Notes: generated from the letters alone by a model not told the origin. A stretch of 64,000 nucleotides of DNA from Candidatus Levyibacteriota bacterium (GCA_029260905.1 JAJDCH010000012.1:2249-66248); one strand, 5' to 3'. Positions 28,649 to 63,817 are shown, counted from the stretch's first letter. Program-made: numbers and translations.

Positions 28649-28661
28649 AAATTATCAGTTA

Positions 28662-35694: not shown

Positions 35695-35887
35695 TATCTA
35701 AATCACATCCAACAACTATCCAATCTCTGTTAACTGCTTTGCTATCCGCTTCCTCGTCTGTCTGGGAATAATTGTAATGATCTAATTGCCCAAATAAATC
35801 CACACCTCTTGCCACGCCCTTCATAAAAGATGGTTTTATAAATAGGGCGGACGAATTTAGGATTTGTTCTGACATATCTTTTTGCAT
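35627..35887 (-). CDS. Passenger ORF: hypothetical acidic 86-aa protein, probably transcribed from the promoter in the right IR
   Basis: ORF only. TTGACA at complement 35911-35916 lies 16 nt upstream of an A/T-rich element and the ATG. Confidence 0.3.
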   Translation of the reverse strand: MQKDMSEQILNSSALFIKPSFMKGVARGVDLFGQLDHYNYSQTDEEADSKAVNRDWIVVGCDLDNAIKQYEQENPEQAAAYRTANI

Positions 35888-36004: not shown

Positions 36005-36670
36005 TCAAAGAGCACCGCGACCAGAGATCATAGCCCATGGAGTTTTGAGAATTATCCAAAAATCATAAAAAATTGATCTTCTTTTCGCATACTCAGCATC
36101 CATCTGGATTCTTTTATCAAAATTAATATCAGACCTTCCGGCAACCTGCCAAAAACCTGTAATTCCAGGCTTGACCGAAAGCACGACTTTTACTGCATCT
36201 TTTGTATAAGGATATTTCTTCTGTTGCTCAGTCAACTCATCTGGATAATATGCGCGAGGTCCAACTATACTCATCTCACCTTTTAAGACATTTATAAATT
36301 GGGGTAATTCATCAAGTGAATACTTTCTGATAAATTTTCCAACCTTTGTAATTCTTGGATCATTCTTTAGCTTATAGCTTCCTTTTTTATAAGCATTATA
36401 TAGTTCTTTATAACGCGGATCTTTTCTAAGCAGGATGTGAGCATCTTTCACCATTGAACGAAATTTATACATCTTGAAGCGTTTCCCAAACTGACCAACC
36501 CTTTCTGGTGTATCAGCAAGAATTGTTCCTTTTGAATTTAATTTTATTGCAATAGTAACAGCAATAATAATGGGAGAAAATATGAAAAGGAGGATGATTG
36601 ACAAAATTACATCAATAATTCTTTTGGCAGTATCATAAAGGCCCTTTTTTTCTGATTCTTTATTTGACAT
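36005..36670 (-). CDS. Polyprenyl-phosphate hexose-1-phosphate transferase (small monotopic bacterial sugar transferase, PglC/WbaP C-terminal type)
   Basis: KRFKMYKFRSM and the signature DELPQFINVLKGEMSIVGPRA. Confidence 0.85.
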   Translation of the reverse strand: MSNKESEKKGLYDTAKRIIDVILSIILLFIFSPIIIAVTIAIKLNSKGTILADTPERVGQFGKRFKMYKFRSMVKDAHILLRKDPRYKELYNAYKKGSYKLKNDPRITKVGKFIRKYSLDELPQFINVLKGEMSIVGPRAYYPDELTEQQKKYPYTKDAVKVVLSVKPGITGFWQVAGRSDINFDKRIQMDAEYAKRRSIFYDFWIILKTPWAMISGRGAL

Positions 36671-36673
36671 TTC

Positions 36674-37759
36674 TTATGCTAAGTGTTCGTGTTTAGTACC
36701 CTCAAGTTTTTCAACAAACTTCTTAACCTTTGGTATTGAACTTTTCGGACAAACAAGTGTAACATCATCAGTTTGCACAACAACCATCTCCTCAAGATCA
36801 ATACCTACAACAAGACTTTTACCACCAATATTATAAACAAGTGAATCTGAACTATCCTCAACCAAAACATTGCCTCTTATAACATTATCTTTTTCTTTTT
36901 CGGAAAGTGCCTCCTTGAGCGCCTCCCATGCGCCAATATCGCTCCATTCAATGTTTTCTGAAATAACATATGCATCTTTTGGATCAAGCTTTTCCAAAAT
37001 CACATTGTCAAAATGAATTTTTTCAAGGTCCGGATAAATCTTTCCCAAAACTTCATAAAAATTATCAGTACCCCAAGAATCAACTATTTCTTTAAGTCCT
37101 TTATAAACATCTGGCGCAAACTTTTGATATTTCTTCCACAAAAAATCAGGCGTTGTAACAAAATAGCCCAAATTCCAAGTATGCTCTCCGCTTGTCAAAT
37201 ATCTTTTTGCAGTTTCACTATCAGGCCTGTATTTAAAGTCAACAAATGAATAAAAAGGAATATCGTTTCTACTTGATACAGGGTCACCATGTTTTATCCA
37301 GCCAAGGTTCTCACTTGCAAATCTAGGCTTTTGCGAAACAAAAACAATTCTATCTTTTTCTTCAGTTATTATCTCGCCTGCTGTTTTTAGTATTTTCCTG
37401 AAATGCTTTTCATTTTTAACCAAATGATCACTCCAAAGAATTACCATTGGCTCATCTGGCGCAACTTTAGTTAAGATACCAGCCATCAGACCAACAGCTG
37501 GTCCCACATCCCGCATCTTTGGCTCTCCCACCACATGATCATGGGGAAGATCTGGCAACTGCTTTCTTACTATATCTACATACGATTTTCCTGTTGCCAC
37601 AAATATATCTTCATATTTAAAATCTGGCTGAAGTCTTTCAACTGCCAACTGAAGGGTAGATTTATCCCCAACAATTTTCTCAAACTGCTTTGGAGTGTTT
37701 TTTCTTGAGAGTGGCCACAGCCTGCTACCAACTCCTCCTGCAAAAATCACAATTTTCAT
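36674..37759 (-). CDS. Mannose-1-phosphate guanylyltransferase-like NDP-sugar pyrophosphorylase
   Basis: MKIVIFAGGVGSRLWPLSRKNTPKQF N-terminus, typical of ManC/GMP. Confidence 0.7.
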   Translation of the reverse strand: MKIVIFAGGVGSRLWPLSRKNTPKQFEKIVGDKSTLQLAVERLQPDFKYEDIFVATGKSYVDIVRKQLPDLPHDHVVGEPKMRDVGPAVGLMAGILTKVAPDEPMVILWSDHLVKNEKHFRKILKTAGEIITEEKDRIVFVSQKPRFASENLGWIKHGDPVSSRNDIPFYSFVDFKYRPDSETAKRYLTSGEHTWNLGYFVTTPDFLWKKYQKFAPDVYKGLKEIVDSWGTDNFYEVLGKIYPDLEKIHFDNVILEKLDPKDAYVISENIEWSDIGAWEALKEALSEKEKDNVIRGNVLVEDSSDSLVYNIGGKSLVVGIDLEEMVVVQTDDVTLVCPKSSIPKVKKFVEKLEGTKHEHLA

Positions 37760-37777
37760 ACTTTACACATTATAATA

Positions 37778-38857
37778 TCAAAAAAGATTATTAACAACTA
37801 TTTGAAAACTTTTCTTAAAATTTTCAAATTTAAATTTGCTCGAATTCACCACTGCGCCTTCAGGATTTAGCTTTAGTCCATTAAATTTTTTAATTGCTCC
37901 AATTAGTGATTCTTTGGTTTGCTTTTCAAATAAGATTCCTGTTTTATTATCAATTACAATCTCTCTTGCGCCACCTTTTTCAAAAGCAATAATAGGTTTT
38001 CCAAAAATTTGGGCCTCAATCATCACCAATCCCAAATCTTCATATCCAGGAAAAATAAGCGCCTTACAGCTTCGATAATACTTAATAAGCTCTTCATCGC
38101 TTACTTTTCCAACAAATTCAACAGTTGGTCCTGATATTTTTTTATAATACTCAATATCACCATCACCAACTATCTTGAGGTTAATTCCAAGCTCATTTGC
38201 AGCAGCGATTGCAAGATCAACTCTCTTGTACTTTGTAAACTTCGAAAGCCTGGAAACAACCACGAAGTAATTTCCTTCCCTTGATTCTTGATTCTTGATT
38301 CTTGATTCTAACGTTACTGGTGGATAAACAACATCTGCTTCACGTTTGTAATATTTCTTAATCCTTTTTCTAACCTCCTCTGAGATGGCAACAATCTGGT
38401 CAGGCCTTTTTGATGCCTGCAAATCCCAAATTCTCAAACCATTAATAATTGGTTTTGATAATAAACGCAAAATCTTATTTGAAAAATATTCATCATAACC
38501 ACTCCAAAGATAACGAGTGGGAGTAAGCATATAACAGAGGTGCTTTGTCTTTCCTGTTGTTATTATTCCTTTTGCAGACTCGGACGTAACAGATATAACT
38601 AAATCAAAATCTTTAAAATTAAAAGATTCAAAAGCAAATGGCATAAATGGCGCAAAAAATTGATGATAATTTTTTGCAAAAGGAATATTTTGCAAAAAAG
38701 ATGGATTTACCTTAAAAACTTTAGCCCAGGAAGCCTTGTCTTTGTCATAAACAGATGTAAAAAGAGGAGCATCAGGATACAATTTATGAAGTGCCAAAAG
38801 AACACGTTCTGCTCCTCCCCATTTATTTACCCTATCATAGACAAAAGCTACACGCAT
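37778..38857 (-). CDS. GT4-family (GT-B) glycosyltransferase containing an in-frame heptamer repeat
   Basis: C-terminal EX7E region EDLGLVMIEAQIFGKPIIAFEKGGAREIV. GAATCAA x4 encodes LESRIKNQESRE. Confidence 0.8.
   Translation of the reverse strand: MRVAFVYDRVNKWGGAERVLLALHKLYPDAPLFTSVYDKDKASWAKVFKVNPSFLQNIPFAKNYHQFFAPFMPFAFESFNFKDFDLVISVTSESAKGIITTGKTKHLCYMLTPTRYLWSGYDEYFSNKILRLLSKPIINGLRIWDLQASKRPDQIVAISEEVRKRIKKYYKREADVVYPPVTLESRIKNQESREGNYFVVVSRLSKFTKYKRVDLAIAAANELGINLKIVGDGDIEYYKKISGPTVEFVGKVSDEELIKYYRSCKALIFPGYEDLGLVMIEAQIFGKPIIAFEKGGAREIVIDNKTGILFEKQTKESLIGAIKKFNGLKLNPEGAVVNSSKFKFENFKKSFQIVVNNLF
38281..38308 (-). repeat. GAATCAA x4 (plus strand TTGATTC x4) perfect tandem heptamer inside the GT4 gene
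   Basis: Direct reading. Confidence 0.85.
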
Positions 38858-38901
38858 ATTTTGGCTTATGGCATATAGCTTATGGCATATTGAACCACAA
38901 A

Positions 38902-40077
38902 CTACTTACTACCCGCTACCTCCTTATAAATATTTATTGTTTGTTTTGCCATTTTTTCCCAGGAATACTTCCTAACCCATCCCAGACCCGAGTCAATAAT
39001 TTCTTTTTTCTTTTTATCATCAAGTACATAGACTTCATTCATCTTTTTTGCTATATCCCCAACTGAATTTGGATCAAAATAAAATGCGTGAGTAGAAAGA
39101 ACCTCTCTAAAAACAGCAATATCAGAAACTGCAACCAGAGAACCATGGGATATTGCCTCAACGGGAGTCAAACCAAATCCTTCAGCAAGAGATGGAGAAA
39201 GTAAAGCAATTGAATTCTCATAAAGTCCATAGAGCTCAGCATCTTTTACATTATGTTTAAACACTATGTTTGTGTAATTCTCTTTGTCGATTTTCTCTTC
39301 AAGTTTTTTATAAAAATAATCATCTTTTCCAACAAGAATAAGCATCACATCTTCATTAATATTCGTTCTAAAAACAGAAAATGCTCTTATCAATTTTTCC
39401 AGATTTTTATGCGGATATGCATTCCCAACATATAAAAAGTATGAAGTATTATGTATTAAGTATTTAGTGTTATTTTTTCTTTCCCCTGATGCTTTATGCT
39501 TGCTACTTGATACTGCATAGCCCACTCCCTCATATGTCACTGCAATCTTATCCTCATGAACCCCAAGTGTCTCAATAAGATCTTTCCCAACCGTCTCAGT
39601 TGGAACAATTATTTTCTTTGCTTTATCTACTGCACGTTTTACAACATATTTATAACCAAGCCGCTTGAGATTATACAAAGAAAGGGGAAGAGTGGATGCC
39701 TTGCCTGTCGGGAAATGGCTTATGATCAGATCGTGAATTGTAATAACATACGGCTTTTTATAAAAAGCAGGTGCAGAAAAATATGGAAAGTGCATCAGGT
39801 CAAGCTCCTCTTTATTCAAAATCATGGGAAATCTAACCTGTTCTTCAATTGAATGCCAACGAATATCAGCAATAACAATTTTCCAGTTTTTACTAATTCC
39901 CAATTCCTTACCTGCCTTGCCGGCAAGTAGGTTCCTTATTACTTCATAATCTCTACTGCGGATAAACAAAACATATTCATTGTCTTCATCAATCTTTTGC
40001 AATTCACTAACTAGATTTCTGATATATCTACCAACCCCAGTCTGTCCCCACAGCCTGCAATCAATGCCTATTTTCAT
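38902..40077 (-). CDS. GT4-family glycosyltransferase
   Basis: AEGFGLTPVEAISHGSLVAVSDIAVFREV (EX7E). Confidence 0.8.
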   Translation of the reverse strand: MKIGIDCRLWGQTGVGRYIRNLVSELQKIDEDNEYVLFIRSRDYEVIRNLLAGKAGKELGISKNWKIVIADIRWHSIEEQVRFPMILNKEELDLMHFPYFSAPAFYKKPYVITIHDLIISHFPTGKASTLPLSLYNLKRLGYKYVVKRAVDKAKKIIVPTETVGKDLIETLGVHEDKIAVTYEGVGYAVSSSKHKASGERKNNTKYLIHNTSYFLYVGNAYPHKNLEKLIRAFSVFRTNINEDVMLILVGKDDYFYKKLEEKIDKENYTNIVFKHNVKDAELYGLYENSIALLSPSLAEGFGLTPVEAISHGSLVAVSDIAVFREVLSTHAFYFDPNSVGDIAKKMNEVYVLDDKKKKEIIDSGLGWVRKYSWEKMAKQTINIYKEVAGSK

Positions 40078-40101
40078 GCAATAAGTATAACACAGGAAAG
40101 T

Positions 40102-41013
40102 TTAAGAAGAGTGTTTTCTATGAAAAATATCAATCCCCTTGTTAACCAGCCAATTTACAAACTTCGGATATTTTTTATCATAATTTTTTTTGAAAAAAAT
40201 TCTCATTGCATCAAAGCGGTGGCCTTGCATTTTTTTCTTAATAACATGATCAGCAGTTATTTCATTATGATTCCTATTTCGAATTCCTGATGCAGCACTT
40301 CCCAGATGGATTATGCTAACATCTGGAACAAAATAAATTTTATACCCCAACTTTTTTAAATCAAAACAAAATTGAATATCCTCACCATAAAAAAAATAGT
40401 CTTCGTCCCACCAATTAATTCTTTCACCCACTTCGCGTCTGACAAAAAGAAACGCACCAGATATCACATCTACCTCATGAATTTTTGATAAATCTTTAAA
40501 GCCCTGGATATATCCACCAAACAATTTTGTTTTTGGAAGTATTTTCTCAAGTCGGGAAAAATGAGCAAATGCATTCCAAGGCGTTGGAAATCCACGATGA
40601 CAGGCATCATCAAGTGCACCATCAACTGTTTCGATCCTACAAGTCACAGCTCCAGCATCTTTATTTTCATCCATAAATTCAATCATCTGATTTAAGGTCT
40701 TAGGATTTACAATAGTGTCGGGATTTAGAAACAAAACATATTTGCCATTGGCAAGAGACAATGCTTTATTATTACCCTTTGCAAAACCAATATTTTGCTT
40801 ATTATCAATAACTACAAAGTTTTTAACTTTTGTCTGCTTTTTATATTTTTCAAACACAGCAAGGGATCCATCGGGGCTTGCGTTATCTGCCAAAATAATT
40901 TCAAATTTACCTGATGCAACTTCATGAGGATAATTCTCCTCAATCGATTTCACACAATCAAGCGCTAGGTCTTTCGTATTATAATTTAGAATAATTATTG
41001 ATAATTCTCTCAT
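40102..41013 (-). CDS. GT2-family (GT-A) glycosyltransferase
   Basis: LSIIILNYNTKDLALDCVKSI...ILADNASPDGS (DXD-type). Confidence 0.8.
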   Translation of the reverse strand: MRELSIIILNYNTKDLALDCVKSIEENYPHEVASGKFEIILADNASPDGSLAVFEKYKKQTKVKNFVVIDNKQNIGFAKGNNKALSLANGKYVLFLNPDTIVNPKTLNQMIEFMDENKDAGAVTCRIETVDGALDDACHRGFPTPWNAFAHFSRLEKILPKTKLFGGYIQGFKDLSKIHEVDVISGAFLFVRREVGERINWWDEDYFFYGEDIQFCFDLKKLGYKIYFVPDVSIIHLGSAASGIRNRNHNEITADHVIKKKMQGHRFDAMRIFFKKNYDKKYPKFVNWLVNKGIDIFHRKHSS

Positions 41014-41453
41014 CGTAAATCTTACTCCTTATATCCTACATCTTCATAAACCCGATTTAGTTTCTCAGCTATACTTTTCCAGGTATATTTTTGCTCCACC
41101 AACTTCCGTCCATTTTTACTTATTCTTTCATAAAGTTTTTCATCTTCCAAAAGACTTATGGTTTTTATTGCCAAATCAATTGATAGATCAGATGCCATAA
41201 TGTCCTCATTATCTTTTGCGCCAAGACTATCTGCGCTCATTTTTGTGGTTATAACTGGTGTTCCACAACTCATGCTTTCCAAAATCTTATAACTTGTCCC
41301 ACCACCAACTCTTATTGGAGCAAGCAAGACATCTGCTTTCTGAAAAATCTTCTCAGTTGGCAATTCAGAATTTTTTTCATCGAACAAAATATCTGGATCA
41401 TTTGTTAGATTTTTAATTGAGGTAGAAATTTTTCTCCCCACAACCCACAACTG

Positions 41454-41478
41454 GATCTTTGATCTTTGATCTTTGATC
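41454..41478 (-). repeat. GATCTTT x3.6 tandem heptamer (coding strand GATCAAA), sitting at the frameshift point
   Basis: Direct reading. Confidence 0.85.
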
Positions 41479-41563
41479 TAATTTTTGGCCAGATTTCTTC
41501 AATTATGAATTTTACAGAATCTCTATTTTGTATCCATTTAAAATCTCCAATAAATAGTATCTG

Positions 41564-41596
41564 CTTTGATCTTTGATCTTTGATCTTTGATCTTTG
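41564..41596 (-). repeat. CTTTGAT x4.7 tandem heptamer (second tract of the same unit, translated as QRSKIKDQRSKQ)
   Basis: Direct reading. Confidence 0.85.
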
Positions 41597-42232
41597 GAGA
41601 AACACGAACTTTTCCGTATCCACTCCATTTGAAACAACTTCAGCGCTAGCTCCTGCATCCCTCATCACTTTTTTATCTTCTTCAGAAACAGCAATCAATT
41701 TGTCGGCTTTTTTCCACGAAGCTTCTTCTTCTTTTTTTATTTTTGCGATATCAATATTCAAAAATGGTCGCATAAAAAAAGGCGCTTTGTCAACAAATCT
41801 CTGATAAACCTGATATTCGATATTGTGCTCTGCCAAAACAATTGGAATCTTTGTTGTGGGCAGATTGTGCATGACATAAAATGTTTCAATGTGAATAAGA
41901 TCATATTTATTTTCTTTCAACTCTTTCTCAATCTCTTCTTTAAGCAAAAAATTGGTATGTCCGATTCTTAGAAAAGAATCATTACCCTTTATTGAATAAA
42001 AAACATTTTTCAAAGACCACTGTCTACCTGTCGCAACTGAAATTACTTTTTTACAAATTTTCTGAAGAACTTTTATATCATTATCAGTTATCGTTTGCCT
42101 AAATCTTTTCTCACAAATAAGTGTAATTTCGTGTTTTTTCGACAACTCTTTTAAGAGATTAAATAGCCGCACTTGTCCACCAGAATACAAAGGGTATGGA
42201 AAATAAGATGAAACAACAAGTATCTTCATAAA

Positions 42233-43990
42233 TTATGAATCAACAATAAAACCTTTTACTTGATGATCCCACATAGTCTTAAATACTCCATTTTTTTTCT
42301 TTAAAAGCCTGTTCGGATCTCCGTCTTCAACAATTTTTCCTTCATTTATCACTATAATTCTGTCCATTTTCTTTAAGGTTGAGAGTCTATGCGCTATTGC
42401 AACTACGGTTCTTTTTTTCATCAACTTCTCCAAAGACTCCTGAACAGCATGCTCACTTTCACTATCAAGGCTGCTTGTTGCTTCATCAAGAATTAAGATT
42501 GGAGCGTTTTTGATAAAGGCTCTTGCAATTGCAATCCTTTGCCTTTGCCCTCCTGACAGCTTCACCCCGCGCTCTCCAACAAGTGTATCATAACCCTTTG
42601 GAAGCTTCATTATAAAATCATGCGCCTGCGCCAATTTAGAAGAATTTATCACATCATTTTCAGAGGCAGAAGGATTACTATAGATTATGTTTTCTCTTAT
42701 ACTTCTATGAAACATGCTTGTATCTTGAGGAACAAAAGCAATCGCACGTCTCAAGCTATCAAGTGTTACGAGTGAAATATTTTGGCCATCAATTTTTATC
42801 TCGCCTTTTCTTATATCAAAATGACGAAGAATTAGAGATACGAAAGTTGTTTTACCCGCACCAGATCTTCCAACCAGTCCCACCTTTTCACCAGATAATA
42901 TTTTTAAAGAAAAGTCTCTAAATATTCTGGTATTATCATATTCAAACGTTATATTATCAAAAACAATATCTCCTTTTTCCGCCCTTAAATCAACCGAGCC
43001 TTTTCTGTTGACAATTGAATGTTCTTTTAAAATCTCAGAAAGTCCTTCTTTTGTTTTTCCATAATTTTCAGCTGTATCTCTTAGCTGTTCACCGATAAAA
43101 AACAACTGACTTGACATTTCTGTAACTATTGCAATAACCATCACAATCACTCCGATACTAATCAGTTCGTTCTGGAAAAGATAAATAGATGTTCCTATCA
43201 TCATAAAAATAAAACCAAAAATTAAGATTCCGTTTATTGTAAGCGTGTACTCAAAATATCTCCATTGCTTAAGGCCAGTATCGTGTTGATTTTTAACAAA
43301 TCCGCCTATATATTTCCTTTCGCCCGATACTGAAGCATATTCATGAACCAGGGAAATGTTGGATAAAGAGTCAACTATTCTTCCTTTTAATGCTGACAGT
43401 GATGAGGCAAATTTATAAGCATGAGGTTGTAGAATTTTTGCAAACCAGATATTTGCACCCAGAAAAAGAACTGCCCAAGCTACGATAATAACACCAAGCC
43501 TGAAATCGCTTTGCCATGCAATCCCAACATACCATACAAGCCCGACAATAAGTGGTAAAAACTGCCACAAAATTTTTTCAAATATTGATTCAGCGCCATC
43601 AACAGCATTCGAAACTTTATTCGTAAGCGCTCCTGCAAATCTACTATTAAAGTAATCCTTGCTATGCAGAGTTAAGTATTCATAAAGTTTTCTATATGCA
43701 GATGTCCTCAAATTCATAAACCACTGCATTCCCGTGAACCCACTTCCTCTCCAAAATATATGAGCCACAAGATAAAAAATAGGGTATAAAACACCCCACA
43801 CCCAGACTGTTTCAATACTAATTGGGTCTGCTGCAACTGAATCTGTCAAATTTCTAAGAACTATAATACCTATCCTCTCACTAGCAGTTGCAAGAAATAC
43901 GAATATCAATGCGCTTATCGCCCATTTCTTATGAATTTTGGTAATAAAAAGTCCAAATGAGATTGGATTTTTGGGAATCTTATTTTCCAT
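42233..43990 (-). CDS. ABC exporter, fused permease-ATPase (MsbA/PglK-like), a candidate lipid-linked oligosaccharide flippase
   Basis: Six-TM N-terminal domain, Walker A GRSGAGKTT, signature LSGGQRQRIAIARA, Walker B ILILDEATSSLD. Confidence 0.85.
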   Translation of the reverse strand: MENKIPKNPISFGLFITKIHKKWAISALIFVFLATASERIGIIVLRNLTDSVAADPISIETVWVWGVLYPIFYLVAHIFWRGSGFTGMQWFMNLRTSAYRKLYEYLTLHSKDYFNSRFAGALTNKVSNAVDGAESIFEKILWQFLPLIVGLVWYVGIAWQSDFRLGVIIVAWAVLFLGANIWFAKILQPHAYKFASSLSALKGRIVDSLSNISLVHEYASVSGERKYIGGFVKNQHDTGLKQWRYFEYTLTINGILIFGFIFMMIGTSIYLFQNELISIGVIVMVIAIVTEMSSQLFFIGEQLRDTAENYGKTKEGLSEILKEHSIVNRKGSVDLRAEKGDIVFDNITFEYDNTRIFRDFSLKILSGEKVGLVGRSGAGKTTFVSLILRHFDIRKGEIKIDGQNISLVTLDSLRRAIAFVPQDTSMFHRSIRENIIYSNPSASENDVINSSKLAQAHDFIMKLPKGYDTLVGERGVKLSGGQRQRIAIARAFIKNAPILILDEATSSLDSESEHAVQESLEKLMKKRTVVAIAHRLSTLKKMDRIIVINEGKIVEDGDPNRLLKKKNGVFKTMWDHQVKGFIVDS

Positions 43991-44023
43991 AAATAAATTA
44001 TAGCAGAATACGAGGCTAAAAGT

Positions 44024-45454: not shown

Positions 45455-45465
45455 TTATCTTAATA

Positions 45466-49366: not shown

Positions 49367-49369
49367 ATC

Positions 49370-49963: not shown

Positions 49964-49995
49964 AACTTATGATTTCTTGCATCATATATCCTAAA

Positions 49996-51147: not shown

Positions 51148-51149
51148 AA

Positions 51150-51686: not shown

Positions 51687-51760
51687 AATTTAAATAGCTA
51701 AATAGTTGTATGGCTATATTGCTCATAACTATCTAGCCATATAGTTATCTCGCTATTCCA

Positions 51761-52696: not shown

Positions 52697-52786
52697 AGAG
52701 GTATTTTAACACTTTTTTGCATTCAAGACTATGCGAACAAAAAATCTAACCCCCAAGAATCAAGCTGCTCTGAACCCAAAAATTTT

Positions 52787-56331: not shown

Positions 56332-56363
56332 TTAAATCCCGATGATTTTAATTCCCTACTAGA

Positions 56364-57488
56364 TTATCCGGTATTAACTCCTATTTTTGAAGCTCGAAAA
56401 ACAAAAGACATATGGAAAGCTCCTACAACAAGAAATAAATACGCCCAGATTGCTGATTTTTCTGCAAAATCTTCAAAACCAAAAACGAAGAAGAATAAAG
56501 TCAGGACAAGAAAAAAAACTGCCAAAAGAAATGAACTTTCTACTCTCAGTCTACTTATTGCTACCAAAATTGCCCAAATTAAAATAATGATAAAAAGTAA
56601 TAAATTGTTAATTTCTGTTACTATAAAAATCTCACCAATAATCACCATAAATAAAACCACTCCAAATACAGGAATGCTTTCTAATTTTCTTTTATCATCC
56701 AACAAGTGGATGTTATACAAAAAGCCAAAAACAACATTAAGCAATCTTATTACTGGGGGAAGAATATATTTGTGAACAAAATTAATAAAAAATATTTTTT
56801 TAACAAATTCAGGTGTAATTTTTTTATTCTTCTCATAAAGTAAATAATAGTAAGCCACAAAAGGTAAAAAGAAAACGAGTATTGAATAAATACTTTCTAG
56901 GTTTTTAACAGCATAAACTATTTTTTCTTTTAAATATGAAAGGGCAAATGAAGGATTTTTTAGATTACTTCGTTCTATTTGATATTCTGTAACTATGGGT
57001 CTATTTTGATTTACAGACAATGCGCTTTTTTCATTTGCCCCCTTGGTAGATACTTCAAATACATAATTTTTATTTTTTGAATTAGAAATCAGATTAAAAC
57101 CAAAAGGAAATAAATTCAGCTCCTTGAATTGTCCCCCGCTATAACTATTAACACTTTGCCATTCATTCTCGCCCTTTTCTCTTATTTTGAAAAAAACTTT
57201 GAAATTATCAGAAACATTTTCTTCATTATTATTCCTAATCCTAATCGCCACAACACCCAAATTCTCTTTCTTTGCTACAAATTCTCCTTTAATTATCTTG
57301 CCATCATATAGCTTTGCGCCTGATGTGTAAATTGCTGAATCTATTTCATGGACAACAGGCACCACGGTATAATGAACATCAAGCATTATGATTTTATAAA
57401 ATGATGCCAAAAAACCAACTAAAAATATAGTCAAAGGAATGATAAATAATAAAAATAATTTTGTTTTTAGAAATTTAATTTTTGTCAT
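56364..57488 (-). CDS. Hypothetical membrane protein (N-terminal TM, ~180-aa extracytoplasmic domain, C-terminal multi-TM)
   Basis: Topology only; translationally coupled (14-nt overlap) to the upstream YfhO-like gene. Confidence 0.35.
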   Translation of the reverse strand: MTKIKFLKTKLFLLFIIPLTIFLVGFLASFYKIIMLDVHYTVVPVVHEIDSAIYTSGAKLYDGKIIKGEFVAKKENLGVVAIRIRNNNEENVSDNFKVFFKIREKGENEWQSVNSYSGGQFKELNLFPFGFNLISNSKNKNYVFEVSTKGANEKSALSVNQNRPIVTEYQIERSNLKNPSFALSYLKEKIVYAVKNLESIYSILVFFLPFVAYYYLLYEKNKKITPEFVKKIFFINFVHKYILPPVIRLLNVVFGFLYNIHLLDDKRKLESIPVFGVVLFMVIIGEIFIVTEINNLLLFIIILIWAILVAISRLRVESSFLLAVFFLVLTLFFFVFGFEDFAEKSAIWAYLFLVVGAFHMSFVFRASKIGVNTG

Positions 57489-59742
57489 AAAATTTTCTAA
57501 CCTCTTGAATTAAAGTATAAATTGTTAACAAAAGCAAGGCCGTACTCGCAATAAGTATCGTAATCAAGTAATAAACTTGATTTTTATAGATAATTACTCC
57601 ATACAATTCATTGTTTTGGACTGTTAATTCAGGAATGTCTTTTGGATAGATAATCCATGTATTTCCAATATAATTTCCCTCTATGTGATAATTGGATGAA
57701 GCGCTAGAACTATTTAGATATAATGCAGTTTCTAAATCTATCATCGGACTATCGTATTGACAACTAGAATTATTACTTTTCTGAAAAGATACTGGCTTTG
57801 AAATACAATCAATTTTTTCATATTCTTCTCTGGATATCCAGACAATCTTCCAACTAGATTTAAATGCCTGAGTCAGATGAATAGCAAACGGCTTATCAGT
57901 TTCTAAATTTGCGAGCTTTATGTAATATCTTGTAGGATCATTTGGAGATACTTTATACGAAACTGAAACACCCTGCTGCAAAGAAGTATTCTTATATTTA
58001 CTATTATTAGGCATGAAAACAACCTCTCTTAATTCAGGATCCAATGAATTGTCAAAAATAGAATCAATTGTTTGTTTGAAAACTATTTTTTTAGGAGAAT
58101 AGATAAAGAAATCATAATCTTTTTTGTTTTTAAAATAATAATGGTTAAAATTAGGGTTTTGGGACACATCCAGTTTGGGATTCTTTTCCATTTCCCCTCT
58201 TAATGAATTTATTTTCTCAATCTCTTCTTCACCATAAAGAGGCCCAGCGTCAATTTCTGGAACAATATCTTTTGCAACAATTATATTTTTCAAATTATGA
58301 GTTACCTGCAAATTATCTATATTCGGATTCATAAATAAATTTTTTGTTATATAAAGTTCTTTGCCTGATATAACTCGAGGATTATCAAAAGAAATTGAGC
58401 GATATTTAGATACTCCATTGTCTAAACAAAGCGTTGAAATTTTTTCATCTTGCATATATCCAGCTCTCCAACATGCACCTGGATAATACTGAACTGCCTC
58501 TGGAATTTTATAAAAAGATTTAACAAAATAGCTTTGATATGAAAGAGGTATTTTATCAACCTGATATTTTTGAAGTCTAAAATCAGAAAAGTTTAATAAT
58601 GGAAGAACGGAAAGTATAACTATTAGTGATGAAAGAGAAAGAAATACTTTTTTATTTCTGGTTCCTACAGTGCCGAGTAAAAAAATAATTGGAATATTTG
58701 CCAAATACAATCCATAGATAGGCGCGTTTGTTAAAAATGGAAAGAGCTTTATCAGAGATGAATAAGCTTCCCGTCCAAAAATATACCCCATCTCAAAAAA
58801 AGTAAACCCCAAAATCATCAAAACAATATTCAAAAAAGTAAATAGTGATTTTTCTTTTAAAACATTTTTAAGCAAATAAATTAAAAAGGTAATAAAAATA
58901 CAAAAACCAAGTACTGTGTATGATCTATGTTCATAAAGAATAAGATTTGTTGACTGAAAGTAGTTGAACATGTCATAAAATCTTCCTTTTACAACAAAAT
59001 TATTAAATACCGAACTGAAATTAAATATACCTGGATTTTTTTCAAAAAAAGGAGTAATAAATGAATATAAAACAGGTAAAAAAATAATTATATTAAAAAT
59101 AACAAAACAAACTATTTTTTTAATTTTCAGAGTTTGCTTTCTTAAAGAAAAAATAATAAACAACAAATACGGTACGATTATAAAAAAATTCAAATGCAAG
59201 AAGCGTACATTTGCCAACCATAAAGACGATGCAGCAAGATTAACCAATAAATACTTCCCCCATCCTTTGTCTTCAAAATAAAATTTATAAAAGCTATATA
59301 TAAACAGTGGAACTGCTGCGTGAATAAGCCCAACACCTCTAAAGCTATACATTAACGGGTTAAACGAATATATTAAAGATAAAACAAATCTTAGCGTTTT
59401 ATCCTTGAAAAATATTGAAGTTAAAAAATAAAATGAGAAAAAAACAAGAATATATGTGGTTAATGAATTAAAGAGTTGAGATCCACCAGCTCCAAATATA
59501 TTGAAAATTGAAAAAGTAAAGAGATTAATTAAAAAATTATTGAAAGCAAAAATTCCCCGATCAAGACCTAAATAATAATTAGTGTTTGAAAAAAGATAAA
59601 ACTGAGAATTAAGCAAGGAGTAAGCTTCTGCAAAATTTTTTGGCCATGATGACTGATCCTGATAAAACCACAAACCCTCTTGAAACATAAAAAAGTTTGT
59701 AGCAATAAGGAAAAATAAAAAAACTATTATTTTAATCTTCAT
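57475..59742 (-). CDS. YfhO-like GT-C-superfamily polytopic membrane protein (~13 N-terminal TM, large extracytoplasmic domain, final TM)
   Basis: The architecture matches YfhO-family teichoic-acid/glycopolymer glycosyltransferases. No motif-level confirmation. Confidence 0.4.
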   Translation of the reverse strand: MKIKIIVFLFFLIATNFFMFQEGLWFYQDQSSWPKNFAEAYSLLNSQFYLFSNTNYYLGLDRGIFAFNNFLINLFTFSIFNIFGAGGSQLFNSLTTYILVFFSFYFLTSIFFKDKTLRFVLSLIYSFNPLMYSFRGVGLIHAAVPLFIYSFYKFYFEDKGWGKYLLVNLAASSLWLANVRFLHLNFFIIVPYLLFIIFSLRKQTLKIKKIVCFVIFNIIIFLPVLYSFITPFFEKNPGIFNFSSVFNNFVVKGRFYDMFNYFQSTNLILYEHRSYTVLGFCIFITFLIYLLKNVLKEKSLFTFLNIVLMILGFTFFEMGYIFGREAYSSLIKLFPFLTNAPIYGLYLANIPIIFLLGTVGTRNKKVFLSLSSLIVILSVLPLLNFSDFRLQKYQVDKIPLSYQSYFVKSFYKIPEAVQYYPGACWRAGYMQDEKISTLCLDNGVSKYRSISFDNPRVISGKELYITKNLFMNPNIDNLQVTHNLKNIIVAKDIVPEIDAGPLYGEEEIEKINSLRGEMEKNPKLDVSQNPNFNHYYFKNKKDYDFFIYSPKKIVFKQTIDSIFDNSLDPELREVVFMPNNSKYKNTSLQQGVSVSYKVSPNDPTRYYIKLANLETDKPFAIHLTQAFKSSWKIVWISREEYEKIDCISKPVSFQKSNNSSCQYDSPMIDLETALYLNSSSASSNYHIEGNYIGNTWIIYPKDIPELTVQNNELYGVIIYKNQVYYLITILIASTALLLLTIYTLIQEVRKFYDKN

Positions 59743-62015
59743 TTTCTTAAATTATACTTTTCGAATCTCTGAATAACAAATATTGAAACAAAAAATATGA
59801 TTGCCACGATAAGCTGAACAAGTAAACTTACATAAAAAAGCATCTGTGTTGAATAATAAGCAATTATATTTATATCAATACTTCCGTCTTTGTTCTCGAT
59901 ATAATAATCTTTTGAAAAATTTTCCTTTATTGTTCCTGGGTCTATCTTCCATAAATTTGCATATCCATTTCCAATTGTATGTGAAGATTCTGAAATTTGA
60001 AAATCTTTCTTCATAAAACTTAATTCATATTCATACAGCTCATTTACATCTCCCGATATATAATTTCTTGAGCTTAAATTGAAATTTTTATTATTTGTCT
60101 TCTGAAGATACAGCTTCCAGTTTTTATCAAAATTAAGATTTAAATAAATATCAGAAACGTCTTTTATACCGTTTATATTTGCAGAAACCCTAACGGGATT
60201 CTGAAAATAAACATTTGATAGTTTGATGTTTTTACCCACCGATAAAACATCACTTCTACAATCGCTTACAATTGAATAAATTGTAAATCCGCTTTCCTTT
60301 TTACCGAAATATTTCTTATTTTTGACCATTTTGTTTTCATCCAGTAATTTTATTAATTCTTCAGATCCATCCTCAGTATTTGCGCCTTTAAAAACATCCT
60401 GTCTTATCATAAGATGTGATATCCCTTGTTCTTTTACAGAACTACAAAACGACTTATTTCCTCTAATCAAATCCATAGTTTCATTTACTTTTTCCTTTTG
60501 GAATGTTTCCAAGGATCCTGTTGAAGAGTCAGGAATAAGCATCTGGAAATTCCAAAAAGTCTTAAGAAAATCATCACCATGATAATAATTTAAAGATTTA
60601 TCATAATATGGTGAGTCACCGTAAAAACCTGGAGCGATAAAAACCTTATTTACATTATCTTTCTTAAGAACTTCTTTCGCATCAAAATAATATCTTGGAA
60701 TTGAAAAATATGTAAAATTCTGTATAAGTAAAAATGAAACAATTGAATAAATTGACAATCCACTCATTAATATTAACAATAATATTTTTTGTTTTTTAAT
60801 TTTTAAGTATTTAAAAATGAATGAAATACCTCCAGCCGACAGCATTAAAAAGAAAAAATAAAATACCCAATAAAATTTCTGAACAGGTCTTCTAAAAATC
60901 TGAAATCCTGGTACATTGTCATACAGCCATTGAAACACTATTTGAAAAGGTTCCTGTCCGCCCTTTGTTATAAAAATTCCAGCAATTATCATCAATACAT
61001 AAAGAGCTATTGCCTTCTTTTTTATTTTTAAAATCGCAATTATAAAAAATGTTATCAAAAAAAGAAAAAATATTATTGAGAAAGGATATGAATTTGGTTG
61101 TGCACCTAGAACTGCTTGATTGCTAAAAAATAATTTATAAATATCTGCATTTTTTACATTTAGCGAGATTGCCTGGCTAATAGCGTTTGTAGCTGAATTA
61201 AGAGAAATTGCTTTGCCAATATTGGAGATAAAAGGAATAAGCCACCACAGGTTGGATAATAAAAGTACAGCAATCACTCCTGAAAATCTTAATAATGATT
61301 TGAAAAAATTTAACTTTTCTATAAATACCAAAAAAATAAAGTAAAAACCAAGAGCTATTAAAAGCGAATAAATTATGGCAACATTACCAAATGAGGTTGC
61401 AGAAAAAAAGAAAATCCAAAATAAAATAATAAAAAAACTTAACTTAATCTTTTTCTCTATTAGTATTTTGTCTGTTAAAAAAATTATTGTCGGAAATAAT
61501 GAATATGGAATAAGGAGAATAAAATGTCCTGGCTCAATGAAGCTTGCAAAAAATGGAGAAAAGGCATATAAAATTGCTCCAAATCCAGCTATCAGATTAT
61601 CAAATCTAGTTGTAGTTTTTATCTTATTTGTCAAAAAATCTTTTATAAAAAAATACATTGAAATCTCAGCCAAAAAGAGCAACATAGATATAAAAAGAAT
61701 TGTCGCAGCTGGAAAAGAAATATTTATAAAATCAAGCAGTAAAAAAAATAAGGTTAGCGGAAAAAGCCCAGAAATATAAAAAGATATATCAATTCCACCA
61801 AAAACAATCGGGTCAAAAACAAACAATCTTTTTTGAAGATATATATCCCAGATAATAGGGGAAATAAAATCTCCTTCTCCTGCTATTAAAAATTTAGAAT
61901 TTCCTACTAGCCATGTGAGAGGTAAAAAAGAAAAAACTATAAATAAAATAATGAATGGATTATTCTTTACAATTTTATTTACTGAAGTAAAAATTTTTTG
62001 CATGATTCTGACCAA
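59739..62015 (-). CDS. Second YfhO-like GT-C-superfamily polytopic membrane protein (tandem paralogue)
   Basis: Same architecture as 57475-59742, with a 4-nt overlap to it. Confidence 0.4.
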   Translation of the reverse strand: MVRIMQKIFTSVNKIVKNNPFIILFIVFSFLPLTWLVGNSKFLIAGEGDFISPIIWDIYLQKRLFVFDPIVFGGIDISFYISGLFPLTLFFLLLDFINISFPAATILFISMLLFLAEISMYFFIKDFLTNKIKTTTRFDNLIAGFGAILYAFSPFFASFIEPGHFILLIPYSLFPTIIFLTDKILIEKKIKLSFFIILFWIFFFSATSFGNVAIIYSLLIALGFYFIFLVFIEKLNFFKSLLRFSGVIAVLLLSNLWWLIPFISNIGKAISLNSATNAISQAISLNVKNADIYKLFFSNQAVLGAQPNSYPFSIIFFLFLITFFIIAILKIKKKAIALYVLMIIAGIFITKGGQEPFQIVFQWLYDNVPGFQIFRRPVQKFYWVFYFFFLMLSAGGISFIFKYLKIKKQKILLLILMSGLSIYSIVSFLLIQNFTYFSIPRYYFDAKEVLKKDNVNKVFIAPGFYGDSPYYDKSLNYYHGDDFLKTFWNFQMLIPDSSTGSLETFQKEKVNETMDLIRGNKSFCSSVKEQGISHLMIRQDVFKGANTEDGSEELIKLLDENKMVKNKKYFGKKESGFTIYSIVSDCRSDVLSVGKNIKLSNVYFQNPVRVSANINGIKDVSDIYLNLNFDKNWKLYLQKTNNKNFNLSSRNYISGDVNELYEYELSFMKKDFQISESSHTIGNGYANLWKIDPGTIKENFSKDYYIENKDGSIDINIIAYYSTQMLFYVSLLVQLIVAIIFFVSIFVIQRFEKYNLRK

Positions 62016-62027
62016 AGAGAGGAGAGC

Positions 62028-62738
62028 TTAATAGTTCATCCTAACAGCAATCTGCTTAAGCATATCCATAAAAGATTGTACGAAATTGTCATTTCTTAGA
62101 GATTCAATATATTTTCCGTATTTTTTAAGATATTTCTCATCAACAATTACACAAAGCCCACAACTCCATTTGAACCGAATCAAATGTAAATTGATGCCTG
62201 TTTTCTCAACCCATTCATTTATCGCTTTTGTACCATGAAATCTTATATCTTGCAGATCAGGATCTGAAGGCGCGCAATATTCATCAAATAAAATTATTGT
62301 GCCTACTTGTATGTGAGGAGTGATCTTATTCAGAGCATCACGATATCCTTCATAAATATCCGCATCAATATGCGCAAATTTTATTTTCTTCACGCCATAT
62401 TTTGACAAAGGTTTTAATTTAGAAAAAACACCTTTAACTAGTTTTGCATTTACTTTTTCTTTGTTCATTCTTCTCTCAACTTGCTTAAGACTTGTTTCTG
62501 TAAAAGTGCCTATTCCCCAATCTTTTTTTAAATTCCCCCCAAGGGGTTGATTAGTGGGTGGCATTCCTCCAAAAGAATCAAATCCAAACAGCTTAATTTT
62601 TTTACCCAAATACCTTTCGCCGAGCTTTGAAGTTTGCACAAGACTACCACCTTGATATACGCCAAACTCCACAAAATCACCAGCAACTGGCGCTTTCCTC
62701 ATTAACTTAAATGCTCTATCAAAAAGAAACTGGATCAT
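62028..62738 (-). CDS. TylF/MycF-family (macrocin-O-methyltransferase-like) SAM-dependent sugar O-methyltransferase
   Basis: GDFVEFGVYQGGS (TylF GDIVECGVWRGGS-like) and HIDADIYEGYRDALNKITPHIQVGTIILFDEY (TylF DGDLYEST..AL..LYPKLS.GG.VIVDDY-like). Confidence 0.65.
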   Translation of the reverse strand: MIQFLFDRAFKLMRKAPVAGDFVEFGVYQGGSLVQTSKLGERYLGKKIKLFGFDSFGGMPPTNQPLGGNLKKDWGIGTFTETSLKQVERRMNKEKVNAKLVKGVFSKLKPLSKYGVKKIKFAHIDADIYEGYRDALNKITPHIQVGTIILFDEYCAPSDPDLQDIRFHGTKAINEWVEKTGINLHLIRFKWSCGLCVIVDEKYLKKYGKYIESLRNDNFVQSFMDMLKQIAVRMNY

Positions 62739-62755
62739 AATTTAAACAAAACTTA

Positions 62756-63817
62756 TTATAACACTTTATTTTTTATTTTTTTACTCTTTTTATATATTTC
62801 TATTATCTGCTCAGCTCTATTATGATATGTATGATATTTCAAAACCCTTTCCATGCCCGCCTTTGCTATTTTTTTTCTTTCTACTGGATGTCTAAGATAA
62901 TAATCTATTTTATCATGCCAGTCTTTTTCATTCTTCGCAATTACCAGTTCTTTTTCAGAAAAATACTTTCGAATAAGTGGAACATTATCAACCAACTCAA
63001 ATCCTCCACATGCAAGAATCTTATATGTTCTCTCATTGAATTCACAATTGCACTTCTGGACCTGGGCTTCATGAACGTTTAAACAAATCTTTGCTGATGA
63101 ATAAACTTTTTTCTCGTCTTGAAAAGAAAGTGAAAACTTGCGTACTTTTTTTAACGGATTTATATTAAAGTACTGTCCTGCTTTTTGTGCATATCCAAGC
63201 ATTTTATTTACAAACGTCCAGTCACTGCCATATATCTTTACATCATATTTATTTTTCAATGGTAATAAATTTTTTTTAAAAAATGCCCGCTTTGCTGGTA
63301 AAAAACTACCCACATAAGAAATGTCGCATTCAAATTTTTTATTGTATTTAGGATAATAAATTGTCTTATCAGCCGCCATGTGTATAGTTTCAAATTTATA
63401 TCCTGTTTCTTCTGTAAATCCCTTCATCATCGGCTCTTCCTGTTCAAACCAATGCCAAAAAACATCTCCAGCAAGACCATCTTTTATAGCCCTTACCTCT
63501 TTTTTATTCTTACTAAGATCTCCAGAACCAGGAAGATCAGAAAGATGATTCCACGAACGGAGTTGACAAAAAACAATGAGTCCTTTCTTTCTATATTTTT
63601 TAAGTATATTAAGATCTATGAATTTCAGATGGTAAAAATTAAGACTGTAGAAGAAAATATCAGGCTGAAAACTATCAAGAAGCTTTTCCAAATTATCATT
63701 GGAAGTAAAAGGCCTAAAATCATGCCCCTTATCTTTGAATGCATTTCTTAACCCTTCATATATAAATCTCGCCGCATAAACAGACTCGAGACTTGGAATT
63801 GTAAACAAGATTCTCAT
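62756..63817 (-). CDS. CgeB-like / GT1-fold glycosyltransferase-like protein
   Basis: C-terminal region ...ILACGGFELVDNVPLIRKYFSEKELVIAKNEKDW...AGMERVLKYHTY resembles the CgeB/Glyco_trans_1_2 C-domain. Confidence 0.45.
   Translation of the reverse strand: MRILFTIPSLESVYAARFIYEGLRNAFKDKGHDFRPFTSNDNLEKLLDSFQPDIFFYSLNFYHLKFIDLNILKKYRKKGLIVFCQLRSWNHLSDLPGSGDLSKNKKEVRAIKDGLAGDVFWHWFEQEEPMMKGFTEETGYKFETIHMAADKTIYYPKYNKKFECDISYVGSFLPAKRAFFKKNLLPLKNKYDVKIYGSDWTFVNKMLGYAQKAGQYFNINPLKKVRKFSLSFQDEKKVYSSAKICLNVHEAQVQKCNCEFNERTYKILACGGFELVDNVPLIRKYFSEKELVIAKNEKDWHDKIDYYLRHPVERKKIAKAGMERVLKYHTYHNRAEQIIEIYKKSKKIKNKVL

Follow-up and report, generated by a model that had tools for sequence, protein, structure and literature searches.

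The 64,000-nucleotide stretch of DNA analysed here, called the window throughout, derives from a Candidatus Levyibacteriota bacterium (GCA_029260905.1, JAJDCH010000012.1:2249-66248) of the Candidate Phyla Radiation (CPR). It carries on its minus strand, from position 36005 to 63817, a nearly contiguous block of 22 open reading frames (ORFs) arranged head-to-tail; an additional ORF, overlapping the final start codon in the sequence TAATG, continues past the end of the window, so that the block is cut by the window edge. The block comprises a 16.7-kb core (36005-52696), conserved together with a neighbouring gene for a DUF4012 protein, and a variable left arm of about 11 kb. We read the core as a pathway, common to the Microgenomatia/Levybacteria lineage, for a conserved mannose-containing envelope glycan that would be built on a polyprenyl carrier, with a wall-bound or capsule-like polymer ranked first among its possible products; this is the interpretation we prefer, at a probability somewhat below even. 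Within the core lie a gene for a 1016-residue membrane protein, predicted to join a ligase- or polymerase-like module to a GT-C enzyme on one chain, and several glycosyltransferase (GT) genes with heptanucleotide tracts that resemble frameshift switches.

The lineage-wide character of the core emerges from a comparison of 80 species loci collected around relatives of the 1016-residue protein (1.38 Mb in total), which were searched with every protein of the window; presence is expressed as the number of loci with a gene over the number of loci whose flanking sequence is long enough to reveal it. The gene order of the core is GT4N-GT4-AcT-GT2-[1016-residue protein]-PMT_2-GT4-GT2-GT4-GT4-ManC-PGT, in which GT4N denotes a stand-alone GT-B N-domain protein, AcT an acetyltransferase and PGT a phosphoglycosyl transferase; DUF4012 and RecO follow, upstream of the division and cell wall (dcw) genes. 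Both this order and the expected spacing are kept in most of the 80 Microgenomatia/Levybacteria loci, with a per-gene presence of 45-99%. GT4N is found in 58/59 loci at a median identity of 55%, GT4d in 61/62, AcT in 66/68 and GT2b in 63/76; beyond the 1016-residue protein come PMT_2 (71/72), GT4c (59/60), GT2a (46/53), GT4b (52/53), GT4a (49/51), ManC and PGT (45/49 each), DUF4012 (40/49) and RecO (22/49). A membrane-bound GT2 enzyme occupies the same position as in the window in 34/55 loci. The gene tables of two relatives, L002 and L004, give the same picture of the core.

On the evidence of these sequences the core is vertically inherited and lineage-wide rather than a local island. The first-pass annotation of this DNA had described the entire block as an island, a term that does not suit a core with fixed chromosomal neighbours in many species; the variable part is confined to the left 11 kb or so. 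Horizontal acquisition of the core is rejected on a GC content equal to that of its surroundings and on the fixed neighbours in relatives. Nor is GT4N the remnant of a larger GT4 enzyme for which it had been taken, its near-constant presence being that of a conserved stand-alone gene. In this genome an ATP-binding cassette (ABC) exporter is inserted between PMT_2 and GT4c; it is found in 0/65 related loci. A Fic-domain gene stands between GT4N and GT4d in Levyibacteriota SPRUCE 49 (L004/L005, 6491-7468) and, like the insertions of the ABC exporter and of an insertion sequence (IS) in the window, it indicates that the conserved core tolerates insertions at several junctions.

The 1016-residue protein (45466-48516) belongs to a family of more than 1400 full-length homologues of about 1010-1035 residues, all of them from CPR bacteria and present in 573 species genomes. 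Its nearest relative, at 63% identity, comes from 'Candidatus Levyibacteriota bacterium OFTM197', and its named matches from Levybacteria, Gottesmanbacteria, Shapirobacteria, Microgenomates and the 'Patescibacteria group'; the window proteins themselves are singletons in a collection of 15 billion proteins. The N-terminal half (residues 1 to about 520, 46957-48516) is WaaL/Wzy_C-like, with about 12 transmembrane (TM) helices and a beta-rich outside loop, and the C-terminal half (residues about 521 to 1016, 45466-46956) has a GT-C fold, shows an invariant 'FVADDFTW' loop and ends in a small outside domain of about 75 residues. An AlphaFold2 model built from 44 sequences (pLDDT 79, pTM 0.77) was compared with the Protein Data Bank (PDB) using Foldseek and retrieved GT-C enzymes at prob 1.0 and E ~2e-3 to 5e-2, among them yeast and human STT3, Pmt4, ArnT, PglB, AglB, ALG12 and DPY19, with STT3 and PglB at the top; the N-terminal half retrieved the O-antigen ligase WaaL (7tpg_B) at prob 1.0 with a TM-score of 0.58 normalised to WaaL. 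Residues 560-760 also align with the neighbouring PMT_2 family in hhalign (prob 75%, E 2.7e-5). Invariant among 44 aligned homologues are Asp431, Arg401 and Arg436 in the N-terminal half and the pair D563 and D564 in an acidic first outside loop of the C-terminal half. No PDB chain was matched by the sequence of the protein or by its family profile, and the family consensus contains neither the WWDxG motif of STT3/PglB nor a large C-terminal outside domain; since the ligase-like half also has no invariant histidine, the protein is not assignable to WaaL, PglL, Wzy or STT3. The predicted folds nevertheless make it a candidate for the transferase that the first-pass annotation had proposed to seek elsewhere in the genome, and it sits inside the cluster. 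We know of no characterised enzyme that carries both modules on a single chain.

Heptanucleotide tracts are the other distinctive feature of the core. Tandem Repeats Finder detects ten period-7 arrays in the window, and the three tracts that are perfect over at least 3 copies all lie in GT4 genes of the cluster, against an expectation of 0 from Markov simulations. One of them, (AGAATCA)x4.3 at 38280-38309, is located in frame (ON) in the inter-domain linker of GT4a; the others are in GT4c, an (AAGATCA) tract at 41454-41479 and a further tract at 41564-41596. GT4c (41022-42229) is split by a frameshift, its N-terminal part spanning 41405-42229 and its C-terminal part 41022-41450, and the break falls exactly at the 41454-41479 tract: adding one AAGATCA unit yields an intact protein of 404 residues, and removing two units yields one of 397 residues. 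The same gene is frameshifted at the homologous tract (AAACTCA) in L041, whose fusion protein is 36% identical to that of the window, and there too one additional unit or two fewer restore the frame. Tracts had been reported as switches in three GT4 genes, and such tracts do exist; their frameshift-switch-like behaviour is borne out by the split GT4c and by the same break in L041. Within the window the perfect tracts are those of GT4a and GT4c, those of GT4b (39437-39472, in frame) and GT4d (51028-51060, near the 5' end) being imperfect.

The related loci extend this pattern. Period 7 accounts for 41 of the 44 perfect tandem repeats in the 80 loci, and 39 of these 41 lie in core sequence (979 kb) compared with 2 outside it (403 kb), an 8-fold higher density (binomial P = 1e-4). 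The core genes concerned are GT4b, GT4N, GT4d (or the sequence just upstream of it), PMT_2, GT4a and GT4c; across the 80 loci no perfect tract occurs in the PGT, ManC, GT2a, GT2b, acetyltransferase or fusion genes. At least one perfect heptamer tract is present in 24/80 loci, and the tracts recur at homologous sites in 10-31% of loci, as opposed to 0-2 loci at each of 14 control sites (of 47-80 loci per site). The most frequented site lies at about nucleotide 138 (codon ~46) of GT4N, with tracts in 20/65 loci; homologous-site tracts are found in GT4a in 8/53 loci, and the GT4d genes of relatives carry tracts at the window site or just upstream of the start. The repeat unit differs between species and is uniform within a tract (AATTCAA x4.4 in one, AATTCAG x4.4 in another), which fits repeated slippage and homogenisation. 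In Levyibacteriota OFTM197 a perfect (ATAAATC)x11 tract (L002 7231-7307, equivalent to L008 7210-7286) occupies the greater part of the interval from the GT4N stop to the GT4d start codon and looks like a promoter or 5'-untranslated-region type of switch. Shorter tracts occur in the GT4N-GT4d gap of L036 and L080. The truncated GT4b of L051 was considered as a third OFF allele and rejected, as a change of one or two units in either direction does not restore it, and programmed -1 frameshift sites were dismissed in that some units fit X XXY YYZ and most do not. Logan contigs of SRR15505512 are 2-4 kb long and end at tracts longer than the assembler k-mer, an assembly artefact that makes them uninformative on polymorphism. 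Exact-protein look-ups for such variation returned nothing.

The enzymatic content of the core was established by Pfam and NCBIfam scans of the window proteins, which uphold most of the earlier family calls: the PGT, ManC, five GT4-type genes (one of them split), three GT2 enzymes, an MsbA-type ABC exporter, a PMT_2-type GT-C protein, and the WcaF-like, TylF and CgeB-type proteins all stand, and the YfhO calls and the GT4 remnant do not. Those calls had passed over the Wzy_C-like N-terminal half of the 1016-residue protein, a 974-residue Kelch and M23 protein, and two membrane proteins of 207 and 374 residues. None of the block genes matches an NCBIfam model at or above its curated cut-off, and none therefore receives a named equivalog. 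The initiating enzyme is a small PGT (36005-36670; 221 residues; Pfam Bac_transf 208.1 bits, cut-off 27) with one hydrophobic segment at residues 22-40 and, in the sequence 'SLDELPQ', the Asp-Glu dyad that is functional in small PGTs. Its best NCBIfam match, EPS_sugtrans (EPS_sugtrans/WbaP catalytic domain), reaches 256.8 bits against a cut-off of 295.6, which gives neither an equivalog nor a sugar specificity. The adjoining gene (36674-37759) encodes a ManC-type mannose-1-phosphate guanylyltransferase (GDP-mannose pyrophosphorylase) that combines an NTP_transferase domain with the ManC beta-helix, covers positions 3-350 of 467 in the GMP_PMI model and is devoid of the phosphomannose isomerase domain. 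GT4a (37778-38857) and GT4b (38902-40077) are separated by a gap of 44 nucleotides that is occupied by 1.9 copies of the 14-bp unit GCTTATGGCATATA (38864-38890). They are followed by a soluble GT2a (40102-41013; Glycos_transf_2 90.9 bits) and the split GT4c.

The ABC exporter (42233-43990) is a half-size transporter of the MsbA/NdvA type, in which ABC_membrane, with 6 TM helices, and ABC_tran domains form a transmembrane domain-nucleotide-binding domain (NBD) arrangement. Next to it lies the PMT_2-type GT-C protein (44024-45454), 476 residues with about 9-11 TM helices, which matches PMT_2 at 36.1 bits (cut-off 26.1) and whose family shares an invariant 'DWHSWRQADT' loop. Upstream of the fusion gene, whose start it overlaps by 26 nucleotides (an overlap that recurs in the relative L002), is GT2b (48491-49366), followed by the WcaF-like hexapeptide O-acetyltransferase AcT (49370-49963) with an N-terminal hydrophobic segment, GT4d (49996-51147) and GT4N (51150-51686; 178 residues; Glyco_transf_4 32.9 bits). 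The core closes with the membrane GT2 (51761-52696), an enzyme of the polyprenyl-phosphate sugar synthase type (Glycos_transf_2 108.7 bits) with two C-terminal TM helices in the hydrophobic segments at residues 235-283. A scan for promoters and terminators returned no more sites than were found in shuffled sequence.

The conserved partner of the PGT is the DUF4012 protein (32110-34215, minus strand; 701 residues in the NCBI gene call). A single N-in TM helix is followed by a large outside part, and 2742 homologues at 60-73% identity make the protein better conserved than the fusion. DUF4012 directly follows PGT in relatives; in the window the two are parted by an insertion (34238-35887) that comprises an IS1595-family transposase gene (34238-35149, plus strand), a gene for a DUF2335 membrane protein (0/49 loci) and a small ORF of 86 codons, and that may detach DUF4012 from the operon. 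The region's highest-ranking promoter-like site (11/12) is at 35914-35886. In the capsule/exopolysaccharide (EPS) locus of Bifidobacterium longum 105-A a DUF4012 gene adjoins the priming transferase gene cpsD (PMC5412050), and DUF4012 is listed among the families enriched in CPR and Gram-positive bacteria (PMC6744442). An AlphaFold2 model of the window protein (pLDDT 76) contains a central alpha/beta domain that retrieves LytR-Cps2A-Psr (LCP) ligases in Foldseek at prob 1.0, E~1e-2 and a TM-score of 0.35; the topology of the protein is likewise LCP-like. None of 37 DUF4012 members matches Pfam LytR_cpsA_psr at E<=10 (0/37), and hhalign gives a prob of 0.5% against Bacillus subtilis TagU (the TagU query itself matching 6UF6 at 541 bits); in PDB neither the protein nor its family profile finds anything useful by sequence. 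Membership of the LCP family by sequence is rejected for now on the Pfam and hhalign results, a weak structural resemblance remains, and an LCP-like nature of the modelled domain is a lead only. Further downstream on that strand, DUF4012 is succeeded by RecO, an aminoacyl-tRNA synthetase, MraZ and MraW, and then by a penicillin-binding protein, Mur ligases, MurA, MraY, FtsW, MurG, FtsA and FtsZ, a setting that is core chromosome beside the division and cell-wall cluster.

The surface-glycan assembly on a lipid carrier that had been proposed for this block is well founded in its components, with PGT, cytoplasmic GTs and extracytoplasmic GT-C enzymes all present. In the pathway that we favour, the small PGT would load a sugar-phosphate onto the lipid carrier, ManC would provide GDP-mannose, and seven GTs, namely the four GT4s with the GT4N subunit and two GT2s, would elongate the oligosaccharide on the cytoplasmic face, where the WcaF-like enzyme would O-acetylate it. 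The lipid-linked glycan would then be flipped, perhaps by the inserted ABC exporter in this genome and by an unlinked flippase in relatives. On the outer face, transfer or polymerisation of the glycan would fall to the WaaL/Wzy_C-like half of the 1016-residue protein, and its GT-C half and the stand-alone PMT_2 protein would add sugars from a polyprenyl-phosphate sugar made by the membrane GT2. The product would be fixed to the cell wall or held as a capsule-like layer, with DUF4012 acting in the last step, and the left 11 kb would supply species-specific tailoring in the form of methylation and extra GT-C and GT-B enzymes. Slippage of the tracts in GT4 and PMT_2 genes would toggle single elongation or decoration steps rather than priming or transfer, such that the glycan would vary within a population.

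A wall or capsule acceptor is ranked first because of the DUF4012 context, and several observations weigh against the pathway in this form. The cluster has no conserved flippase (ABC 0/65; no Wzx in the window block or in the L002 and L004 tables); more precisely, neither a Wzx (MOP) flippase nor a PCP chain-length regulator is encoded in the window block or in the L002 and L004 gene tables, and neither Wzx nor an ABC gene is found within 10 kb in L002 and L004. The ABC exporter may be the flippase in this genome alone: its best NCBIfam matches are NdvA and MsbA, and PglK scores 175 bits against a cut-off of 1000, over the NBD region only, so the claimed core of PglC, GTs and ABC flippase falls away. 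Ordinary Wzx/Wzy-type exopolysaccharide synthesis, which the first-pass annotation had named as the contrary case to its own, has a counterpart in the Wzy_C-like domain but none for Wzx. That domain itself (PF04932, residues 237-450) scores 30.3 bits in the window protein, just below the cut-off of 31.7, and a PF04932 match is precomputed for most homologues of the fusion. An outside-loop histidine is catalytic in WaaL and PglL, and residues 1-520 of the 44 aligned homologues contain no invariant or near-invariant histidine. The link between DUF4012 and LCP enzymes has no sequence support beside its TM-score of 0.35. Finally, capsule and O-antigen loci seldom keep every GT one-to-one between distant species, and such conservation fits a core glycan, a protein-linked one included. 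General protein O-glycosylation is ranked second for that resemblance and because O-oligosaccharyltransferases belong to the Wzy_C family: a lipid-linked oligosaccharide would be moved en bloc to Ser, Thr or Tyr of S-layer, pilin or other surface proteins by the Wzy_C-like half as a transferase of the PglL/PilO/WsaB type, with decoration by the GT-C modules. The WaaL/Wzy_C likeness of the N-terminal half, the gene-for-gene GT conservation over 80 species, which recalls protein-glycan cores more than hypervariable capsule loci, and the appearance of PgfS and AglJ, both protein-glycosylation enzymes, among the best NCBIfam matches of the membrane GT2 speak for it, as does the suspicion of pilin glycosylation in CPR bacteria (PMC11623550). 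We nonetheless consider it somewhat unlikely, in that the analysis found no acceptor protein, sequon or PglL-specific domain, the N-terminal half is without an invariant histidine, the sole literature context of DUF4012 is a polysaccharide locus, and all NCBIfam protein-glycosylation equivalogs score far below cut-off (for the membrane GT2, PgfS 140 against 500 and AglJ 87 against 325, and its ArnC score is 157 against 529). The original reading, in which a Ppm1-like GT2 and a PMT-like GT-C protein carry out protein O-mannosylation as in actinobacteria beside a PglC/ABC-flippase en-bloc system, has points in its favour: a GT2 of the polyprenyl-phosphate sugar synthase type with C-terminal TM helices and a GT-C partner, PMT_2, are present with ManC, which would supply GDP-mannose, and the L004 orthologue of the PMT_2 protein also matches PF02366. 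The window protein itself matches the generic PMT_2 model and not the GT39 models, with no PMT (PF02366) or PMT_4TMC (PF16192) match even at E<=10, no NCBIfam match and no useful PDB match by sequence or family profile; the membrane GT2 is at its position in 34/55 loci compared with 71/72 for PMT_2, the ABC exporter is missing from all 65 informative loci, and the same enzyme pair equally defines glycan or lipid decoration of the ArnC/ArnT, GtrB/GtrC and GacI/GacL types. Protein O-mannosylation is improbable on this balance. We judge equally poor the prospects of a lipid-anchored lipoglycan, akin to lipomannan (LM) or lipooligosaccharide (LOS), in which a membrane glycolipid would receive the glycan from the WaaL-like half and polyprenyl-phosphate-mannose would serve the GT-C enzymes as donor for extending the glycan. 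The resemblance to WaaL, the phase-variable GTs typical of lipooligosaccharides and the mixture of GDP-mannose, GT4s, a Ppm1-like GT2 and GT-C enzymes, which parallels actinobacterial LM and lipoarabinomannan synthesis, are countered by a cluster that contains no genes for lipid-anchor synthesis, by a PGT start that implies a pyrophosphate-linked intermediate unlike lipomannan based on phosphatidylinositol mannosides, and by the lack of any tie between DUF4012 and lipoglycans.

The switching component of the preferred pathway has a rival of its own, which concerns the tracts only: they could be neutral by-products of a 7-bp duplication bias of the lineage, tolerated in surface loops, and the split GT4 an ordinary pseudogene. 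This is quite possible, if not the explanation we favour. About 90% of the in-gene tracts are in frame (ON) and most have only 3-5 copies, they lie in loops and linkers, and imperfect 7-bp arrays (3.9-4.7 copies, 73-91% matches) occur in frame in housekeeping genes, namely an IleRS-like ORF that leaves the start of the window, a MurF-like ligase gene and MraW. These arrays (86-114, 445-477, 24545-24571, 28415-28445 and 28637-28666) encode loops rich in K, T, Q, N and S, and point to a general tendency of the lineage to 7-bp repeats that reaches beyond glycosyltransferases. A bias of that kind does not readily account for the 8-fold higher density of perfect tracts in the core (P = 1e-4) and their confinement there to GT4 and PMT_2 genes, for same-site recurrence in 10-31% of loci against 0-2 loci at 14 control sites, for the replacement of the unit over whole tracts between species, which implies ongoing slippage, for two independent OFF alleles whose breaks coincide with a tract and would be undone by one unit, or for the 11-copy tract immediately before GT4d in the closest relative.

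The left arm begins with a gene for a secreted protein of 974 residues (52787-55711), which combines about six repeats of a Kelch beta-propeller with a lysostaphin-type M23 peptidase and beta domains at the C-terminus. Of the relatives only the closest has it (L002 2624-5539; 1/48 loci); the protein is probably not involved in glycan synthesis and could serve an episymbiont in degrading the wall of its host or prey. Two membrane proteins of 207 residues (1 TM helix; 1/48 loci) and 374 residues (about 7 TM helices; 5/46), encoded at 55708-57488, show no noteworthy family at E<=10. The two large polytopic proteins at 57475-62015, of 755 residues (2/44) and 758 residues (0/44), each have a TM bundle at the N-terminus, a domain outside the membrane and a TM segment at the C-terminus, and had been described as tandem YfhO-like GT-C proteins, a description that does not survive: neither matches YfhO at E<=10, they have no detectable similarity to each other and no sign of paralogy, the 758-residue protein is of the AftD type (GT-C_AftD 33.8 bits, cut-off 26) and the 755-residue protein matches no family. 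The 758-residue protein has 8 other matches among 5.8 billion proteins, four of them at 30-34% identity. Over 56000-62000, which holds the 374-, 755- and 758-residue genes with their almost complete lack of relatives, the GC content falls to 0.27-0.30 from about 0.35 elsewhere; this segment is possibly acquired or fast-evolving, horizontal acquisition being possible for the 56-62 kb interval with its low GC. Beyond them in the arm lie two tailoring genes, for a TylF-type O-methyltransferase (62028-62738) and a Glyco_trans_1_2 (CgeB-type) protein (62756-63817), both in 0/44 loci. In L013 a perfect (AATTTTC)x4.6 tract (8034-8065) lies inside an ORF of 2253 nucleotides that is weakly similar to the AftD-type GT-C gene of the window, and in other species heptamer tracts may thus also be present in further GT-C genes close to the cluster. 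Elsewhere in the window, a C39-like peptidase gene (12391-12978, plus strand) is the lone plus-strand gene between FtsZ and an FAD-oxidase gene in a run of minus-strand genes. Three perfect to near-perfect copies of the 14-bp sequence TTTTGCTTATCACT (4610-4651) directly precede a prenyltransferase/terpene-cyclase-like gene (4640-5938) and overlap its TTG start, and a histidine kinase gene lies about 1 kb upstream; the TTTTGCTTATCACT array may be a regulator-binding array.

All enzyme classes of the cluster are known, and GTs switched by simple sequence repeats (SSRs) are classic in Neisseria, Haemophilus and Campylobacter. A literature search found no description of this gene set in CPR bacteria, of a ligase-like/GT-C fusion with a DUF4012 partner or of a lineage-wide, site-specific heptanucleotide system in CPR GT genes, in agreement with the earlier statement that such a system had not been characterised in organisms of this type. 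A 2024 study of Saccharibacteria called CPR glycosylation 'unexplored' and suspected the glycosylation of pilins (PMC11623550). The CPR, or Patescibacteria, make up a large share of bacterial diversity. They attach to other cells or rely on them for their living, and next to nothing is known of the chemistry of their surfaces. A 12-gene module with DUF4012 is shared here by hundreds of species, and its fusion of about 1020 residues is a signature enzyme that offers an expressible and assayable target. If the tracts are real switches, stochastic surface variation would occur beyond host-adapted pathogens in environmental ultra-small bacteria as well, and tract length would be a simple feature by which to follow surface phasotypes in metagenomes. 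A bolder version would see in the cluster a near-universal Microgenomatia surface-glycosylation machine, in which the WaaL/PglL-like and STT3/PMT-like fusion glycosylates surface proteins of the S-layer or pili en bloc and fixed-site heptanucleotide contingency loci diversify the glycan; we hold this to be unlikely. Were such a protein glycosylation machine with contingency loci real, and we think the chance small, no earlier phase-variation system would have been described in CPR bacteria, and this one would plausibly serve phage evasion or the modulation of host attachment.

Among characterised systems, the Gram-positive Wzy-dependent capsule and wall pathways (Streptococcus pneumoniae cps; B. 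longum 105-A eps) share with the cluster a PGT start, several GT4 and GT2 enzymes, an O-acetyltransferase and a Wzy_C-type membrane protein, and in B. longum 105-A the DUF4012 gene next to cpsD corresponds to the large outside protein beside the PGT here. In contrast to these pathways the cluster lacks Wzx, a CpsC/D-type chain-length regulator and a recognisable LCP enzyme, its Wzy_C-like module is fused to a GT-C enzyme, and its GT set is conserved one-to-one instead of being hypervariable. En-bloc protein glycosylation (Campylobacter PglC/PglK/PglB; Neisseria PglL; the S-layer enzymes WsaB and WsfB of Geobacillus and Paenibacillus) has in common with it a small PGT, about seven cytoplasmic GTs, a candidate transferase of the Wzy_C family, an ABC half-transporter (in this genome only), a methyltransferase (in the variable part) and candidate phase-variable GT genes. 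The pgl genes of Neisseria are under SSR control, including a heptanucleotide tract in pglE. Unlike the Pgl systems, the fusion family has no WWDxG in its consensus and no PglL-specific features, and the Pgl equivalog models score far below cut-off. From the three-component systems (ArnC/ArnT, GtrB/GtrA/GtrC, CsbB/YfhO, GacI/GacL, PgfS/PgfM and Ppm1/PMT) one recognises the presence, in one cluster, of a GT-C enzyme beside a membrane GT2 that ends in TM helices; here a small flippase of the GtrA type is missing, the GT-C proteins match the generic PMT_2 and AftD models and not YfhO, ArnT or GT39, and the pair is embedded in a PGT-initiated pathway.

At the level of single enzymes, the fusion differs from WaaL (PDB 7TPG) and from GT-C enzymes in having no PDB sequence match, two modules on one chain and no invariant histidine in its ligase-like half; the predicted folds of its halves are like those of WaaL and of STT3, PglB, Pmt4 and ArnT, respectively, and the acidic first outside loop (DD 563-564) is held in common. 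The tracts depart from the SSR contingency loci of LOS, capsule and pilin-glycan genes in Neisseria, Haemophilus and Campylobacter in that the unit is almost always 7 bp, in 3-5 copies (one of 11), and in that the sites are conserved across many uncultivated, non-pathogenic CPR species. With those loci they share non-triplet repeats in, or just upstream of, GT genes and OFF frameshifts that a single unit would reverse.

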